Part shown: positions 1,441-22,370 of the stretch, one piece after another
How positions within the stretch are numbered: the stretch's first letter is position 1
How the letters are laid out: every line of letters begins with the position of its first letter
IMG/VR virus record: IMGVR_UViG_3300031853_000169
Strand: one strand, 5' to 3'
Length of the DNA: 33,827 nt
Source of the DNA: a virus
Notes under the pieces: model-generated
What the model was told of the DNA's origin: nothing
The model's input: only the letters and a program-made list of their open reading frames with translations
Database searches by the model: none
Program-made: the position numbers and the translations under genes

Positions 1441-2670
1441 ATGAAAATATATGGAATGCCATATCTCAAAAGTAAACTTGCAAATAAAAGCAGCCGTGTA
1501 AAAATGCGGTACAACTACTATGAAATGAAGAATAAAATGCGGAAGATAAATGCTCTGATACCGCCGGAGTTCCGAAGTCTGACGTACTCTCTTGGCTGGT
1601 GTGCGAAAGCTGTTGACAGTATCGCTGACCGCCTTATCTATGACGGCTTCAGTGATGATGATTTCAGGATAGGGCAGATATATGCACTGAACAACTCTGA
1701 TGTGCTTTTTGACAGTGCGAACTTATCGGCTCTGATTTCATCATGCAGTTTCCTTTACATAGATATCAACGGAAACGACTATCCACGTATTGAGTGCATT
1801 GACGGAGAAAACGCTACAGGAATCATTGACACAGCTACCAATATGTTGACTGAAGGCTACGCTGTTCTTGAACGTGATGAGTATGGAAAGCCTATTTCAG
1901 AAGCCTATTTTCTGCCGTTCCGGACGGAGTATTATGAATCCGGTGAACTGGTTGATGTATATGAGCATACAGCACCTTATCCGCTTCTTGTACCGATAAT
2001 CAACCGACCGGACGCAAAGCGTCCCTTTGGACATTCGAGGATATCACGCACCTGCATGGATATCGTGCAGAGTGCATTCAGGACGATGCAGAGGTCAGAA
2101 GTCAGTGCTGAATTTTATTCAGTCCCGCAGAAATATGTTGTTGGGATCTCACAGGACGCTGAATTTGATAACAGAAAAGCAACTCTCAGCTCATTCCTGA
2201 AATTCACCAAAGACGATGAAGGAGGCAAGCCATCTCTCGGACAGTTCGAGCAGCAGTCGATGACTCCGCATCTGGAACACATGAAGATGCTCGCTTCGAT
2301 GTTTGCCGGGGAGACAGGCCTGACGCTCGATGATCTCGGCTTCAACACCGGAAATCCTGCAAGCTATGACGCTATCAGAGCAAGCCACGAACAGCTCCGC
2401 CTGACTGCACGGAAAGCTCAGAGGACTTTCGGAGTCGGATTCCTGAATGCCGGATATCTCGCTGCCTGTATACGTGATAATATCACATATGAAAGATATG
2501 CCTTTGCTGGCTGCAAGTGTCAGTGGTATCCCATATTCGAGCCTGACGCTACCGCCCTCGGTGCTGCCGGTGATGCGATCTATAAGATTAACGAAGCCGT
2601 TCCCGGTTTTATCGGTGCTGAGAATATCCACCGTCTGACAGGCTTGGAGAGTGATACAAATGACCGCTGA
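1441..2670 (+). CDS. Portal protein (SPP1 Gp6-like)
   Basis: 409 aa. Sequence character is typical of SPP1-type portals (e.g. RPDAKRPFGHSRISR, SVPQKYVVG). Its 3' end overlaps the MuF-like gene. The call rests on recalled homology plus synteny. Confidence 0.85.
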   Translation: MKIYGMPYLKSKLANKSSRVKMRYNYYEMKNKMRKINALIPPEFRSLTYSLGWCAKAVDSIADRLIYDGFSDDDFRIGQIYALNNSDVLFDSANLSALISSCSFLYIDINGNDYPRIECIDGENATGIIDTATNMLTEGYAVLERDEYGKPISEAYFLPFRTEYYESGELVDVYEHTAPYPLLVPIINRPDAKRPFGHSRISRTCMDIVQSAFRTMQRSEVSAEFYSVPQKYVVGISQDAEFDNRKATLSSFLKFTKDDEGGKPSLGQFEQQSMTPHLEHMKMLASMFAGETGLTLDDLGFNTGNPASYDAIRASHEQLRLTARKAQRTFGVGFLNAGYLAACIRDNITYERYAFAGCKCQWYPIFEPDATALGAAGDAIYKINEAVPGFIGAENIHRLTGLESDTNDR

Positions 2671-4024
2671 CGACCTCATCAGACTCATAGAAATGCGTAC
2701 TTCACTGAAGCTGCGGAGCTTGCAGAAACGCATTGAAAGCGGCACGGCAACGCTCCGGGATTCGTTTGAATATTCGGCAGCAGTCGCCGGTATAACCGGA
2801 CTCGTTTTGTCGGAAAACATCATCGGCATCACTCCGGAAGAACGTGAGCTGATATGCACTGCACTTCTCCGGCAGAACCACCGGGAAGTCAATGATATCT
2901 TCGCTCAGGTCCAGGAGAATATCGACCGCAGGAACGGTCTGACGCTCCGTCCCCGGCAGGGAGAATTTCCGGCTGAAAGAGTGCAGCAGTTCGCACACTC
3001 GCTCGTGGATCCGACCGTGGAAGAAAGTGTTATCCGCCGGCGTGCAAGGAGCGGAACGGAAAATATCACGCTCTCTTTCCACGATGACAGCGTCCGGGAG
3101 AACGCAAAGTTCCGCAATGATGCTGGTCTGAAATGCTACATAGAGCGTATCGGTTCAAGCTGCTGCGACTGGTGTACCGAGGTCGCCGGAAAATATCTTT
3201 TCGGAACTCAGCCGAAAGACATCTTCCGCAGACACGATAACTGCGACTGCGTTATCATCTATGACAACAAGGTTCTTCGGGGAAAGCTCAACGAAAAAGG
3301 TGAAAGCACCAAAACTTGGGAGGAAGTTCCCGATACCGAACGAGCCGACTACACTCCCGAAAGACTTTCCCGACAGCAGGCGGAAAAGCTACAGAATCAG
3401 AAACTTTCCCAAATTCGTGGAATACGTGTTGACAATTCCGGCAGAAGTGGTATAATATCAAGTAGAGGAAGCGGAAAAAATCCACAGCAAAGTGAACATA
3501 TAGTTGAAAGAATCGGAGAATTAGATTTCAATGATAAAAGAGCTATCGCAAAGTCTTTACAAGAATTTGAATATAAGTATAAAGACAGCAGAATTGAACA
3601 TTGCATAGTTTTTTGCACAAATGGCGAAGTTTATGAAGTACATGGCGACCTTGATACTGTTGATACTGAATTGCTTGGCGAGAAAATGAAAGGTAGTACT
3701 AATGAACATAATCATGTTACCGGAGAAAGTCAGTATTCATTTAGTTGGGAGGATCTTAGTTCTTCAGCAAAAGACGGTTCACATATTGTTATGGCTTATG
3801 ATGAAAAATACCGATATTCAATGATATTTCCTGAATATAAACTTAATCTCGATGAAGTAGAGCAGGCATATATTGATGCTGATAATGAAGTTGGAACTAT
3901 TAATTCAATAAGCTATACATTAAGACAACAAAAAGAAATATCTGATGAAGATTATCAACATGAAGTAATAAAGCGTGCTTGTGAAAGGCTTGGTGTTAAA
4001 TATGAACGAAAACGAAAGGCTTGA
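2660..4024 (+). CDS. Head-morphogenesis protein, SPP1 gp7 / Mu F family, fused to an unrecognised ~190-aa C-terminal domain
   Basis: The N-terminal ~255 aa carry the family Cys/His cluster SSCCDWCTEVAGKY...RRHDNCDCVIIY. A G/S-rich linker (SGRSGIISSRGSGKN) follows, then an AT-rich-encoded C-terminal domain. ATG 2660 is preferred (GGAGAG 8 nt upstream); GTG 2651 is an alternative start. Confidence 0.8.
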   Translation: MTADDLIRLIEMRTSLKLRSLQKRIESGTATLRDSFEYSAAVAGITGLVLSENIIGITPEERELICTALLRQNHREVNDIFAQVQENIDRRNGLTLRPRQGEFPAERVQQFAHSLVDPTVEESVIRRRARSGTENITLSFHDDSVRENAKFRNDAGLKCYIERIGSSCCDWCTEVAGKYLFGTQPKDIFRRHDNCDCVIIYDNKVLRGKLNEKGESTKTWEEVPDTERADYTPERLSRQQAEKLQNQKLSQIRGIRVDNSGRSGIISSRGSGKNPQQSEHIVERIGELDFNDKRAIAKSLQEFEYKYKDSRIEHCIVFCTNGEVYEVHGDLDTVDTELLGEKMKGSTNEHNHVTGESQYSFSWEDLSSSAKDGSHIVMAYDEKYRYSMIFPEYKLNLDEVEQAYIDADNEVGTINSISYTLRQQKEISDEDYQHEVIKRACERLGVKYERKRKA

Positions 4025-4217
4025 AGAATATAAAAACAAAATATATGCTGCTCAGGAAAATTATAAAAAAGAGTTTTCAGAGTTTATGAAACGCAGAAAA
4101 AATTACACTAAACTTGATGAAGGTGTTCGTGAGGAAAAAGAAATTCGTAAGAGATTTTTTGATAAACTTGAAGCACTTTCAAACGAATATAAAGATGTAC
4201 TTGAAACCGCCCATTAA
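4002..4217 (+). CDS. Small K/E-rich helical protein (71 aa); candidate partner or immunity protein for the MuF C-terminal domain
   Basis: ATG 4002 overlaps the MuF 3' end; alternative GTG/TTG starts exist from 3975. It has the same AT-rich composition as the MuF C-terminal region. Its stop codon lies in the loop of a terminator hairpin. Confidence 0.55.
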   Translation: MNENERLEEYKNKIYAAQENYKKEFSEFMKRRKNYTKLDEGVREEKEIRKRFFDKLEALSNEYKDVLETAH

Positions 4218-4228
4218 GGCGGTTTTTT
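4204..4228 (+). terminator. Rho-independent terminator 1
   Basis: AAACCGCC-cattaa-GGCGGTTT followed by a T-run (TTTTTT). Confidence 0.75.
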
Positions 4229-4245
4229 CATACCCAAACGCAAAA

Positions 4246-4268
4246 AGCACCGCAAAGGTGCTGTTTTT
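4246..4268 (+). terminator. Rho-independent terminator 2 (in tandem with terminator 1)
   Basis: AGCACC-gcaaa-GGTGCT followed by GTTTTTA. Confidence 0.65.
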
Positions 4269-4288
4269 ATACCCGAAAGGAGAATCCC

Positions 4289-4642
4289 ATGCAGAAATCA
4301 AGAGATGCACCCTGCAAACGTCCTGACCACAACGGCACTCAGAGGGCGCAGTTTGAATCCAACAAGAAAAAGATATATGCAACGCAGGAAATATGCGGAA
4401 TCTGCGGAAAACCTGTTGATTTCGGGTTTAAATTCCCGCACCCGATGAGTCCGTGTATCGACCATATCATTCCGGTAGCCAAAGGCGGACACCCGTCCGA
4501 TATCAGCAACTTGCAGTTAGCCCATATGTGCTGCAACCGTCAGAAGTCCGACAAGCTCATGCCGAAACAGCAGTTCAGCACTGCTCCGGAAGTCGTTTCA
4601 AACAGGCTTCTGCCTCATACTTTCGACTGGAAGAATATATAA
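4289..4642 (+). CDS. HNH endonuclease, terminase-associated
   Basis: CGICGKPV...CIDHIIPVAKGGHPSDISNLQLAHMCCNRQKSD shows an HNH motif with a Cys zinc site. AAAGGAGA ribosome-binding site. The stop shares a base with the terminase start (TAATG). Confidence 0.9.
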   Translation: MQKSRDAPCKRPDHNGTQRAQFESNKKKIYATQEICGICGKPVDFGFKFPHPMSPCIDHIIPVAKGGHPSDISNLQLAHMCCNRQKSDKLMPKQQFSTAPEVVSNRLLPHTFDWKNI

Positions 4643-6051
4643 TGCCTGAAAGAACAGGAAAACAAACTCCGACAGTTTCCGTTGTTCTGCCTTATACCGA
4701 ATCCTGCGGAACAGAAGCAGCGGAGATATACAACCGTTCCGGACGAACTGCACAGCCGTGGCAGGAGCTTATGCTTGAAGATATCATGGCGGTAAACGAG
4801 GACGGACTCTGGGTGCACATGAAATTCGGCTGGTCTATCCCCAGACGAAACGGAAAATCCGAACTGCTGATAATGCGTTCACTGTGGGGAATAACTCATG
4901 GCAGACGTGTGCTTTATACTGCTCACAGAACAACGACTTCTCACGGGGCATGGGAAAAAGTCATCGAGCGTCTTGCAAAAGCCGGATATATCGAGGGCGA
5001 GGACTTCAAAACAACAAAGCAGTTCGGCCTTGAACATATCGAATGGCTGTCCTCAGAGGCAGTAATAAATTTCAGGACACGTTCTTCAAAGGGTGGTCTT
5101 GGTGAGGGTTACGATGACCTTATAATTGACGAGGCACAGGAATATACATCAGATCAGGAATCAGCTCTAAAATACGTTGTCACTGATTCAAAGAACCCTC
5201 AGACGCTTATGTGCGGAACTCCACCGACCGCTGTTTCTTCCGGTACAGTTTTTGTCACCTACAGGCAGGAATGCTTGTCAGGCGATGCTCAGGACTGTGG
5301 CTGGGCGGAATGGTCTGTTCCGGCTCTTACCGATGCTCATGATCCGGAACTCTGGTATGAAACAAATCCTTCACTTGGCTATATCCTGACAGAAAGAACT
5401 ATCCGTTCAGAGCTTGGGAAGGATCAGGTCGATGATAATATCCAGCGTCTTGGACTGTGGCTCAGATACAATCAGAAATCGGCTATTTCAGAAGAAGAAT
5501 GGCAGCAGTACAAACTTAAATCAGCTCCAGTACTGCCGGAAGATATCAGACTATATTATGGCATAAAATACAGGAATGGCAGTGTTTCTCTTGCTGTTGC
5601 AGTCCGGACGGCTGATGATAAGATATTCGTTGAAGATATCGACTGCCGTTCCGTTCGTGACGGGAATTCGTGGATAATTGACTATCTGCGGAATCCTCAT
5701 ACTGCTTCTGTTGTGATAGACGGTGCAGGAGAACAGACGATTCTTGCAAATGATATGAAAGATGCTGATGTTAAATGCAAGCCGGTTCTGCCGGCTGTCA
5801 AGGAAGTGATCTCTGCGAACGCTCTCTTTGAAAAGAAACTTTTCGAGGGACTTATCTGCCATACCGGACAGCCTGCACTTGTTCAGGCTGTTTCCAACTG
5901 TGAACATAGAGCTATCGGAAACTCCGGCGGATTCGGATATGTCTCTATTTTAGAGGGAACTGATATCTCACTGCTTGAAGCCGTACCTCTGGCTGTATGG
6001 CAGTGCAGCAGTTCAAATAAAGTCAAGAAAAAACAAATCATTACATATTGA
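4642..6051 (+). CDS. terL: Terminase large subunit
   Basis: Walker A-like PRRNGKSE and Walker B LIIDEAQEY, with a C-terminal nuclease-type half. The track start at 4453 lies inside the HNH gene and was rejected in favour of ATG 4642. Confidence 0.9.
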   Translation: MPERTGKQTPTVSVVLPYTESCGTEAAEIYNRSGRTAQPWQELMLEDIMAVNEDGLWVHMKFGWSIPRRNGKSELLIMRSLWGITHGRRVLYTAHRTTTSHGAWEKVIERLAKAGYIEGEDFKTTKQFGLEHIEWLSSEAVINFRTRSSKGGLGEGYDDLIIDEAQEYTSDQESALKYVVTDSKNPQTLMCGTPPTAVSSGTVFVTYRQECLSGDAQDCGWAEWSVPALTDAHDPELWYETNPSLGYILTERTIRSELGKDQVDDNIQRLGLWLRYNQKSAISEEEWQQYKLKSAPVLPEDIRLYYGIKYRNGSVSLAVAVRTADDKIFVEDIDCRSVRDGNSWIIDYLRNPHTASVVIDGAGEQTILANDMKDADVKCKPVLPAVKEVISANALFEKKLFEGLICHTGQPALVQAVSNCEHRAIGNSGGFGYVSILEGTDISLLEAVPLAVWQCSSSNKVKKKQIITY

Positions 6052-21925: not shown

Positions 21926-21946
21926 TTATTTCACCTCCATGTATTA

Positions 21947-21975
21947 ATTTTATCATCACTGATGATAATTGTCAA
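21947..21975 (-). promoter_or_regulatory. Repressor-gene promoter (leftward): TTGACA-17 nt-TAAAAT with TGn
   Basis: On the - strand the sequence reads TTGACAATTATCATCAGTGATGATAAAAT. The -35 element is the complement of 21970-21975 and the -10 the complement of 21947-21952. Confidence 0.7.
21951..21967. promoter_or_regulatory. Operator O1: TATCAT-N5-ATGATA palindrome inside the leftward promoter spacer
   Basis: TATCATCACTGATGATA has perfect 6-bp (in fact 8-bp) arms. Confidence 0.65.
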
Positions 21976-21991
21976 TAGATGTTCTCGAAAC

Positions 21992-22029
21992 AAGATGCAC
22001 AAGATTAGTGTGAAAAAATTGTGCATCTT
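21992..22029. promoter_or_regulatory. Second class of inverted repeat (11-bp perfect arms, 16-bp spacer) between the divergent promoters
   Basis: AAGATGCACAA (21992-22002) and TTGTGCATCTT (22019-22029). The repeat lies between the two -35 boxes, so it acts at the DNA level. Confidence 0.5.
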
Positions 22030-22030
22030 T

Positions 22031-22047
22031 TCACATAGAAAATGATA
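22031..22047. promoter_or_regulatory. Degenerate third operator-like site (TCACAT-N5-ATGATA)
   Basis: The right half-site is perfect and the left matches 4 of 6. Its centre is 33 bp from the O2 centre. Confidence 0.3.
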
Positions 22048-22055
22048 AAAAGTAC

Positions 22056-22084
22056 TTGACAATTATCATTTGCAATGATATAAT
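22056..22084 (+). promoter_or_regulatory. Early rightward promoter: consensus TTGACA-17 nt-TGnTATAAT
   Basis: TTGACA at 22056-22061 and TATAAT at 22079-22084, preceded by TG at 22076-22077. Confidence 0.8.
22064..22080. promoter_or_regulatory. Operator O2: TATCAT-N5-ATGATA inside the rightward promoter spacer
   Basis: TATCATTTGCAATGATA. The 14-mer TTGACAATTATCAT is shared, in mirror orientation, with the leftward promoter. Confidence 0.65.
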
Positions 22085-22169
22085 TTCTTTGAAAGTTCAC
22101 AGTGACAATGTGAGTTTTCAGCATTCAACAGTTAAAACCCCATAGGAAATAAGACAAGGAGGTATCTGC

Positions 22170-22370
22170 ATGGAAGACATCAGACACGAAACCACGACCA
22201 CAGATGCAATGCACACCCTGTACAACAGCGGAGTCCTTGCAAGGTCGCCGGAAGAAGCCGAGCTGCTTGACTGGTTCCGCCAGCTCGCACCGGACGAACA
22301 GCTATTAGAGCTCGCAAGAGCCAAGGGAATGGCTCAGGCTATGAGCTACGTTAAAATGAAAGGAGCATGA
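22170..22370 (+). CDS. First early gene (66 aa), in the Cro position but with no recognisable HTH
   Basis: AAGGAGG ribosome-binding site 7 nt upstream. It is the first ORF downstream of the rightward promoter. Function unknown. Confidence 0.6.
   Translation: MEDIRHETTTTDAMHTLYNSGVLARSPEEAELLDWFRQLAPDEQLLELARAKGMAQAMSYVKMKGA

Follow-up and report, generated by a model that had tools for sequence, protein, structure and literature searches.

The viral sequence IMGVR_UViG_3300031853_000169 (IMG/VR), analysed here over its full 33,827 nucleotides and called the window below, is a complete temperate siphophage of 33.8 kb in which the gene after the portal gene encodes a minor head protein (the trunk) extended by an additional C-terminal domain (the cargo). 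We propose, with moderate confidence and on the strength of comparative sequence analysis, that the 3' end of this MuF-type gene and the sequence up to its terminators (3400-4270) form an exchangeable cargo cassette seated in a slot bounded by a promoter and terminators, a proposal that includes the delivery and the expression in lysogens outlined below. The cargo and the small open reading frame (ORF) overlapping its end (3466-4202) are a compositionally foreign unit, which close relatives replace with unrelated pairs of cargo and small ORF. The linker between trunk and cargo, described in the initial annotation of this DNA as rich in glycine and serine, encodes a predicted consensus sigma-70 promoter conserved at the nucleotide level, a point which that annotation had missed. 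The cargo is probably a divergent JAB/JAMM-like metal hydrolase, as judged from its conserved residues and from profile comparison, and sequence profiles place it in a large, hitherto unannotated family attached to MuF1, MuF2 and portal proteins.

A low-GC unit exchanged between conserved flanks

The long ORF of the head protein starts at 2651 (GTG) or 2660 (ATG) and ends at 4024, giving a protein of 454/457 amino acids (aa). In sliding windows, the G+C content (GC) is 0.50-0.59 between 2700 and 3300, 0.29-0.34 between 3430 and 4200, which is the lowest-GC stretch of the whole window, and 0.46-0.52 after 4250. Positions 3466-4202 have a GC of 0.318 versus 0.470 +/- 0.030 in windows of the same length elsewhere (minimum 0.402; z = -5.1), the GC dropping from about 0.53 to 0.32. 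An amino acid composition effect could be rejected as the cause, because GC at third codon positions (GC3) drops too, down to 0.18 (trunk 0.575, cargo 0.178, small ORF 0.225, downstream HNH endonuclease gene 0.59). The five G+C counts of the initial annotation (37, 19, 21, 14 and 30 per row of 60 nucleotides) were all exact on recount, and the composition shift it described survives both the sliding-window analysis and the GC3 check, as does the return to about half G+C past the terminators. It had placed the turn to AT-rich sequence after the glycine/serine-rich linker; the shift is real, but its sharp boundary lies at about 3465, just past the embedded promoter, and not at the linker as such.

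The limits of the unit emerge from a comparison with the DNA of viral contig L212. Identity is 87% over portal and trunk and 83% over 3400-3465, where it stops at 3465; blastn detects no DNA similarity between the two sequences over 3466-4202; identity then resumes at 4203, with 91% over the first terminator (T1) and 81% across the second (T2) and the HNH gene. Since homology to L212 breaks exactly at 3465 and 4203, we take 3466-4202 to be the exchangeable unit. T1 forms the conserved 3' flank of the slot, retaining its identity to L212 despite the different cargo. Both hairpins that had been noted as tandem intrinsic terminators were found, and together they fold with -24.7 kcal/mol (z = -3.1; RNAfold). 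A short direct repeat follows each of them within 4223-4275 (TTTTTCATACCCAAA after T1 and TTTTTATACCCGAAA after T2), and may be a remnant of the building of the slot or of a duplication.

Twelve relatives of the trunk were identified on viral contigs (36-75% amino acid identity). Each has a different C-terminal tail, of 21-247 residues, and in all twelve the GC of the tail (0.32-0.45) is far below that of the trunk (0.45-0.62). Pfam matches identify these cargos as an anthrax-LF-like (ATLF-like) zincin in L212 (E 1e-5), a PBECR2 nuclease in L213 (E 7e-6), a C80-like peptidase in L223 (E 1e-3) and a canonical HNHPGSTRPSGTD JAB-like (Prok-JAB-like) domain in L220 (E 0.04), while the cargos of the remaining relatives have no Pfam match. 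A small ORF overlapping the tail or just past it is plausible in 10 of the 12, the exceptions being L213 and L218. In phage MT835767 (L001), homologous portal and trunk genes are followed by an SprT-like cargo with an HExxH motif and then by an 89-aa Cys-rich ORF, and trunks of the MuF2 type (PF06152) show the same cargo polymorphism. Conservation among MuF homologues therefore stops at the joint, as the initial annotation had suspected, the twelve relatives and MT835767 each carrying a different cargo. Its broader comparison with the polymorphic MuF toxins of temperate phages also stands: trunk, variable C-terminus and small downstream ORF are all present, in a genome with an integrase and a CI-like repressor. 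In the trunk relative L218 (3694-3762) a perfect joint promoter is followed by only a 21-residue tail, which resembles an empty slot without cargo.

The cassette also occurs without the trunk. In L226 and L227, which come from two independent samples, a block corresponding to 3400-4235 of the window is present at 94% nucleotide identity and lacks the trunk; fragments from the 5' end of an HNH gene stand on either side of it, and an Rce1/CPBP-like gene is adjacent. The promoter of these copies is intact and the cargo frame is open over 218 codons, with no canonical start. A further copy lies in a degraded prophage (L200). Trunk-less modules are typical of polymorphic toxin loci, and these copies indicate, from sequence comparison, that the block from promoter to terminator behaves as a unit. 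At a separate locus, found in two samples (L002:3563-4999, also L003), a truncated trunk and a JAB-like cassette stand directly after the last repeat of a clustered regularly interspaced short palindromic repeat (CRISPR) array. That array is of type I-C, has at least 7 repeats GTCGCCCCCTATGCGGGGGCGTGGATTGAAAT, is preceded by cas8c-cas7-cas4-cas1-cas2, and has a ParE-like gene downstream.

These exchanges bear on whether the C-terminal domain could be morphogenetic, acting as a head-maturation or self-processing peptidase with the small ORF as an assembly factor. JAB peptidases do act in phage assembly, as does lambda tail protein K (PMC1779556), and minor capsid proteins often end in this domain. 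However, close relatives hold nucleases, zincins, unrelated domains or nothing (L218 and the cargo-less MuF2 trunks) at the same position, which argues that the domain is dispensable for assembly. Foreign GC, a predicted promoter and terminator of its own and survival without a trunk would also be unexpected of a core domain, and we consider a morphogenetic role very improbable.

The trunk itself (residues 1 to ~260) matches PHROG 2494, annotated as minor head protein, with E = 4.5e-30, and does not reach the threshold of the Pfam MuF model PF04233 in hmmscan. Comparison of hidden Markov models (HMMs) with hhalign, using clean domain-only templates from PF04233-positive regions, aligned the trunk family with these regions at 58-62% probability (P ~8e-5), against 0.4% for the reversed control; a noisier first template had given 9.5%. 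The alignment covers ~80 of 113 columns and brings the R..TE, C..C..dGk and P.HpnCRC signatures into line. The start of the trunk gene lies inside the 3' end of the portal gene, i.e. immediately downstream of the portal. Jamet et al. (PMC5576092) defined the MuF superfamily by HMM-HMM relationship and by position just after the portal gene, and as the trunk combines such similarity with this position, its sequence identifies it as a divergent MuF domain. The initial annotation was right to place it among the minor head domains of the MuF superfamily, but the domain is not the standard SPP1-gp7/Mu-F form that had been claimed.

A predicted promoter at the joint between trunk and cargo

From position 3400 onward, the joint is 94% identical to the trunk-less L226 cassette. 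The promoter predicted within it matches the consensus hexamers at 12/12 positions and has an extended -10 element (TG at 3448-3449, then G at 3450). It coincides with the fall in GC, and the homology to L212 runs on for 9 nt beyond it. We examined 18 loci, the carriers of the close JAB-cassette subfamily: a site with at least 11/12 matches is found at the same position in 17 of them and a 10/12 site in the remaining one, whereas the background of sites with at least 11/12 matches away from the joint in the same loci is ~0.05 per kb per strand.

When these sequences are aligned on the -10 element, both hexamers are kept and the spacer is not. The encoded joint peptides vary (VDNSGRSGII, VDSSGKSAII, LTSTKTRGII, LTLAGERDII and VDNNGNDDII); 'II' is preceded by G, A or D, encoded by a codon that always ends in T. 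The -35 hexamer is found in two codon phases, as xTT GAC A with a 16-nt spacer or as TTG ACx with a 17-nt spacer. Because the hexamers are kept while peptide and spacer vary, selection appears to act on a DNA signal and not on the peptide. The joint promoter is also predicted before unrelated cargos, with 12/12 matches in L001, L212, L215 and L218 and 11/12 in L214, L219, L222 and L223. Among MuF2 trunks with cargo, 6 of 16 have a site of at least 11/12 and 3 more a site of 10/12; three cargo-less MuF2 trunks have no such site.

Alternatively, the promoter-like sequence may not be a promoter, and may have been kept as a linker peptide (a processing site or hinge, V/I-D-x-S..S-G-I-I) or as a joint for DNA recombination. 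Its location exactly at the recombination breakpoint, the recurring peptide SGII encoded by part of it and the absence of a canonical in-frame start afterwards are consistent with such roles. A linker peptide is nevertheless difficult to reconcile with residues that change under constant hexamers, with the two phases of the -35 element and with the invariant T before 'II', and the unconserved spacer is contrary to a contiguous recombination site. The cargo-less trunks, moreover, do without the sequence. We therefore regard this alternative as unlikely and continue with the sequence as a predicted promoter.

The early promoter of the phage itself provides a comparison for activity. The second perfect consensus match in the window (at 22056) is probably, from its sequence context, the early lytic promoter with its operators. 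Since that promoter is also a perfect consensus match, the joint promoter is plausibly active in the host. Operator-like inverted repeats ATTATCAT...ATGATAAT surround the promoter at 22056, and a strong Shine-Dalgarno site with an ATG at 22171 follows.

Two further candidates at the joint were rejected. A stand-alone cargo made from the internal promoter is not supported, as there is no in-frame ATG, GTG or TTG before the catalytic core in either the window or L226, and the conserved 'RGSG' codons (AGAGGA) are not a Shine-Dalgarno site, since no start codon comes after them.

A probable JAB/JAMM-like cargo with an overlapping small ORF

The C-terminal region of 193 residues has no meaningful match in Pfam, PHROGs, NCBIfam or PADLOC. 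It nevertheless has 42 close homologues, and an exhaustive profile search recovered 561 cluster representatives (50% identity) at an E-value of 1e-3 or lower, so that what the initial annotation had called an unassignable and apparently novel domain is one member of a large family, as yet unannotated, whose motif is JAMM/RadC-like. In most members the domain ends a protein of 450-650 aa. Among 119 representatives, the carriers are MuF1 (48), MuF2 (25), VG15 (7), portal (2) and XkdF protease (1) proteins. P0165 (652 aa) is a portal protein (PF06381, E = 5e-118) that ends in a cargo of the same JAB-like family.

In 39 close homologues, residues E52, H89, H91, S101 and D104 never vary. Across 119-141 representatives sharing 22-62% identity, conservation of 90% or more is confined to E52, G61, H89, H91, F100, S101 and D104, with P92 also reaching this level in the more divergent set of 119. 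The family consensus reads HNHP...YSFSxxD and the overall motif E..HNH(P)..S..D, residues that, read from the alignment, constitute the JAMM signature in its RadC-like form. As a reference for profile comparison we used 117 diverse RadC-type domains obtained by a motif-based scan of viral contigs, replacing an earlier set of relatives of E. coli YeeS that had too little diversity (hhalign 30%). Against this reference hhalign gave a probability of 87.6% (P = 3.5e-6) in an alignment that matches the upstream Glu, HNHP and S..D to their counterparts, in register; the reversed control gave 7%. Recurrent weak Pfam matches over the domain, in 10 of 119 members, are solely to the JAB clan (Toxin-JAB1, DUF4329 and Prok-JAB).

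Structural models obtained with AF2 have a predicted local distance difference test score (pLDDT) of 88.7 and 90.9. The predicted order of elements, beta-alpha-beta-beta-(alpha)-beta-alpha-beta-beta, is compatible with the JAB layout, and the motif residues are placed as in JAB domains: strand 2 begins at the Glu, strand 4 ends at HxH and the next helix carries S..D. BFVD contains the fold in further phage 'minor capsid proteins', again C-terminally, and yields a single weak RadC match (E = 7e-3). The best matches of the core in the PDB are weak and correspond to deaminase-fold proteins, with template modelling (TM) scores of 0.34-0.39. A deaminase identity was ruled out, as the [HC]xE and PCxxC motifs are absent, and PDB sequence matches to perfringolysin and a RecA linker, obtained with the single sequence and with profiles, were judged spurious. 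The cargo model also matches uncharacterised proteins of giant viruses in BFVD (Foldseek E 1e-3 to 1e-6, TM 0.4-0.5), among them F317L of African swine fever virus (ASFV), 3R of Frog virus 3 and pithovirus proteins.

The ratio of nonsynonymous to synonymous substitution rates (dN/dS, omega) between the cargo and its 94%-identical copy in L226 is 0.05, while out-of-frame controls exceed 6, which indicates from codon-level comparison that the cargo encodes a real protein under strong purifying selection. The small ORF is likewise 94% identical to that of L226, with an omega of 0.13 calculated from only 5 changes.

The small ORF was present as described in the initial annotation, overlapping the end of the cargo and rich in lysine and glutamate (48% K+E+R+D). 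Scans of Pfam, PHROGs, NCBIfam and PADLOC gave nothing meaningful for it. It has four database homologues. Homologues in L200, L209 and L194 share 41-47% amino acid identity with it globally and 45-46% over the local tblastn matches. An overlapping ORF of 59-85 aa is found in 16 of 16 distinct JAB-cassette loci for which downstream sequence is available (17 if the near-identical L002 and L003 are both counted). These ORFs fall into at least three sequence types with a common C-terminal pattern. The ATG of the small ORF lies within cargo codons that are themselves conserved; for types A and C these encode K-Y-E/G (TAT Gxx), for type B they encode G-D-E-Q-H-E (3990-4005 in the window, L201:5494 and L211:5557). 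Because the start lies in those codons, conservation at the C-terminus of the cargo (Y187 and R189) may partly reflect the overlapping gene.

The identity of the small ORF follows that of the cargo. Its type tracks the cargo tail (Spearman rho 0.64) better than the JAB core (0.32), and L209 is a recombinant, with core and trunk like those of one group and tail and small ORF like those of another. It also differs by cargo class: JAB-like cargos are accompanied by K/E-rich helical ORFs and zincins by Cys-rich ones, the Cys-rich ORFs behind three zincin cargos having the appearance of zinc ribbons. The downstream ORF thus changes with cargo class and, within JAB cassettes, with the cargo tail, in line with the co-variation that the initial annotation had proposed. 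As far as the sequences allow, this fits a small ORF that is the cognate partner of the cargo.

Several observations weigh against the interpretation developed so far. The co-variation of tail and small ORF could be linkage alone, as the two overlap. If the motif is removed from both profiles, the RadC match falls to 11%, with the register kept, and HMM searches of Pfam, PDB and NCBIfam find no JAB domain for either the window protein or the family consensus. Foldseek searches of the PDB with the full and trimmed models return no solved JAB structure, the best E-values being 0.015 and 0.2. Finally, the promoter is missing from the more distant part of the cargo family (L195-L199), and in the window it lies ~540 nt upstream of the small ORF, which is odd for the expression of an immunity gene.

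Genomic setting, known systems and proposed mechanism

Coordinates of the features are collected in Table 1. The genes of the window include the portal, the MuF-cargo gene, an HNH endonuclease, the large terminase (TerL), head and tail genes, the tape measure and an endolysin, as well as a serine integrase, a CI-like repressor, a helicase and a primase; the phage is considered temperate because it encodes the integrase and the CI-like repressor. Its host is probably Ruminococcus or another member of the Oscillospiraceae, and the close cargo homologues come almost entirely from Ruminococcus/Oscillospiraceae metagenome-assembled genomes and from rumen or gut viromes. The portal gene (87% nucleotide identity to L212) is homologous to that of L001, and normal GC is back from the HNH gene (81% identity to L212), directly after which the large terminase gene begins at 4642. 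Gene order differs between the window (1441-6051: portal, MuF-cargo, HNH, TerL) and MT835767 (L001:2896-7800: HNH, portal, MuF-cargo, TerL); in the window, the HNH and TerL genes lie beyond two terminators, through which late transcription must read. No Rfam RNA family was found in 3200-4500.

Table 1. Features of the cargo cassette, its surroundings and related loci (window coordinates unless a contig is named).
Feature	Position	Strand	Evidence or remarks
Portal gene	1441..2670	+	3' end overlaps start of MuF-like gene; weak SPP1_portal match
Trunk, predicted divergent MuF-superfamily minor head domain	2651..3428	+	signature CCDWC...AGKY...RRHDNCDC
Trunk-cargo joint	3400..3465	+	encodes ...IRGIRVDNSGRSGIIS; common to relatives with other cargos
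Predicted sigma-70 promoter, in frame within the coding sequence	3429..3456	+	TTGACA 3429-3434, 16-nt spacer, TATAAT 3451-3456
Swappable low-GC unit (cargo and small ORF)	3466..4202	+	blastn of window against L212; GC
Cargo core, probable JAB/JAMM-like alpha/beta domain	3491..3838	+	AF2 models, motif conservation, hhalign to RadC-JAB
Core motif codons	E 3596-3598; H 3707-3709; H 3713-3715; S 3743-3745; D 3752-3754	+	
Helical C-terminal tail of the cargo (two helices, one strand)	3839..4024	+	last codons hold the small ORF start
71-aa K/E-rich ORF, putative cognate partner (immunity or inhibitor)	4002..4217	+	overlaps cargo 3' end
Terminator T1	4203..4226	+	9-bp stem GAAACCGCC/GGCGGUUUU, small ORF stop codon in loop, then U-run
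Terminator T2	4246..4270 (hairpin 4246-4262)	+	AGCACC-gcaaa-GGUGCU then GUUUUUAU; conserved in L212
HNH endonuclease gene	4289..4642	+	PF01844 E = 2.2e-10; PHROG 338 E = 1.8e-33
Second perfect promoter, predicted	at 22056, within 21940-22175		TTGACA-17-TATAAT; intergenic, beside CI-like repressor gene
Trunk-less cassette	L226:987-2078 (also L227)		holds promoter, whole cargo frame, small ORF, T1

The cassette shares features with several known systems. Phage 'morons', which Juhala et al. are said to have described in 2000, are reportedly units of foreign GC framed by a promoter and a terminator, each a free-standing gene. The cassette resembles them in its GC (0.318 vs 0.47), in the predicted promoter at 3429-3456 and in T1 and T2, and differs in being a translational fusion. 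In rhs genes, internal promoters drive the expression of the C-terminal toxin and its immunity gene (Starsta et al. 2020, PMC7043789). There, as here, a promoter lies within the delivery gene just upstream of the module of toxin and immunity gene, and could permit expression independent of delivery; here, however, the promoter is a predicted one, in frame in a virion protein gene and a fixed joint for many unrelated cargos.

The closest parallel in architecture is offered by the MuF polymorphic toxins of temperate phages (Jamet et al. 2017, PMC5576092). They share with the cassette the position of the gene after the portal gene, the temperate phage, the MuF trunk, the variable C-terminus and the small downstream ORF, and the relatives found here carry nuclease and metallopeptidase cargos as they do. 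In contrast, the present trunk falls below the PF04233 threshold, the JAB-like cargo family is not mentioned in PMC5576092, and conserved elements, an embedded promoter and terminators, delimit the cassette; the text of that paper contains no occurrence of promoter, GC content, linker or transcription. The polyvalent proteins of Iyer et al. (2017, PMC5512222) also use MuF and portal anchors and include RadC-type JAB, PBECR and zincin effectors, and the present cargo family is likewise found on both MuF and portal proteins. Unlike those giants of 2-15 domains, the window protein is a simple two-domain protein; its JAB-like family is not detected by the Pfam RadC and Prok-JAB models, and it has a dedicated overlapping small ORF. 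With the RadC-like JAB (PF04002), JAMM and Tox-JAB-1 (PF15659) domains the cargo shares the order E...H-N-H-P...S-x-x-D and, as predicted from the models, equivalent secondary-structure elements, but its spacing is HxH-x9-SxxD and not the usual x7, and strands 3 and 4 are separated by an extra helix, with a helical tail added at the C-terminus. This type of architecture has been known since 2017; new are the JAB-like cargo family, very large and so far unannotated, and the slot between promoter and terminators, whose boundaries are precise to the nucleotide.

The following mechanism would account for this arrangement. During lytic growth, late transcription would produce the fusion of trunk and cargo, which the MuF trunk would carry into the capsid, as for SPP1 gp7, and which would then enter the next cell with the DNA. 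Placement in the capsid is established for SPP1 gp7. For MuF fusions it has been argued by Iyer et al. (PMC5512222) and Jamet et al. (PMC5576092). In the recipient, the substrate of the JAB-like hydrolase may be a host protein or isopeptide, or else a nucleic acid. In the lysogen, transcription of the cassette would start from the embedded promoter, independently of the late genes, and because the cargo has no in-frame start downstream of the promoter, the main product would be the small ORF protein, which may neutralise the cargo as an immunity factor or inhibitor. The common promoter and terminator flanks could serve as homology arms for the exchange of cassettes between phages. The labels 'toxin' and 'immunity', as applied here, are suggested by the architecture only.

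The same architecture could instead deliver a takeover or anti-defence effector into the infected cell, with no role as a toxin against competitors. Such a cargo might be a JAMM isopeptidase that removes ubiquitin-like conjugates of a defence system, or a RadC-like processor of nucleic acid, and the small ORF a chaperone or inhibitor that silences it in the producer. We regard this as possible rather than probable. Polyvalent proteins are thought to deliver early effectors through MuF and portal anchors, with RadC-JAB among those listed (PMC5512222), bacterial defences use ubiquitin-like conjugation that is reversed by JAB enzymes (PMC10097602), and a family of 561 clusters is very widespread and not sporadic. 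PADLOC, on the other hand, finds nothing, and the predicted lysogen promoter, the cargo-specific small ORF and the trunk-less cassettes fit a toxin-immunity pair at least equally well.

A bolder extension of the proposed exchangeable cassette, to which we would give only a small chance, is that the joint and terminators form a portable expression slot. Any pair of cargo and partner inserted there would become both a capsid-packaged fusion in lytic growth and a module expressed in the lysogen, with integron-like exchange among MuF1-like, MuF2 and portal genes. The cargo would then represent a new virion-delivered JAMM clade, possibly of deconjugases that counter ubiquitin-like defences.

Cargos anchored to MuF are considered one of the main means by which temperate phages infecting Firmicutes of the gut and rumen bring enzymes into bacterial cells. 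To our knowledge, how these cargos are expressed, how they are exchanged and how they are kept harmless to the lysogen have hardly been studied. The cargo family described here, with its 561 clusters, offers a clear catalytic motif that can be mutated. The joint promoter, found across unrelated cargos and two trunk families, could explain how partner genes are expressed in lysogens, and the boundaries at 3465 and 4203 suggest how modules are swapped. The promoter joint also provides a practical annotation rule for finding cargo cassettes in phages of Oscillospiraceae.

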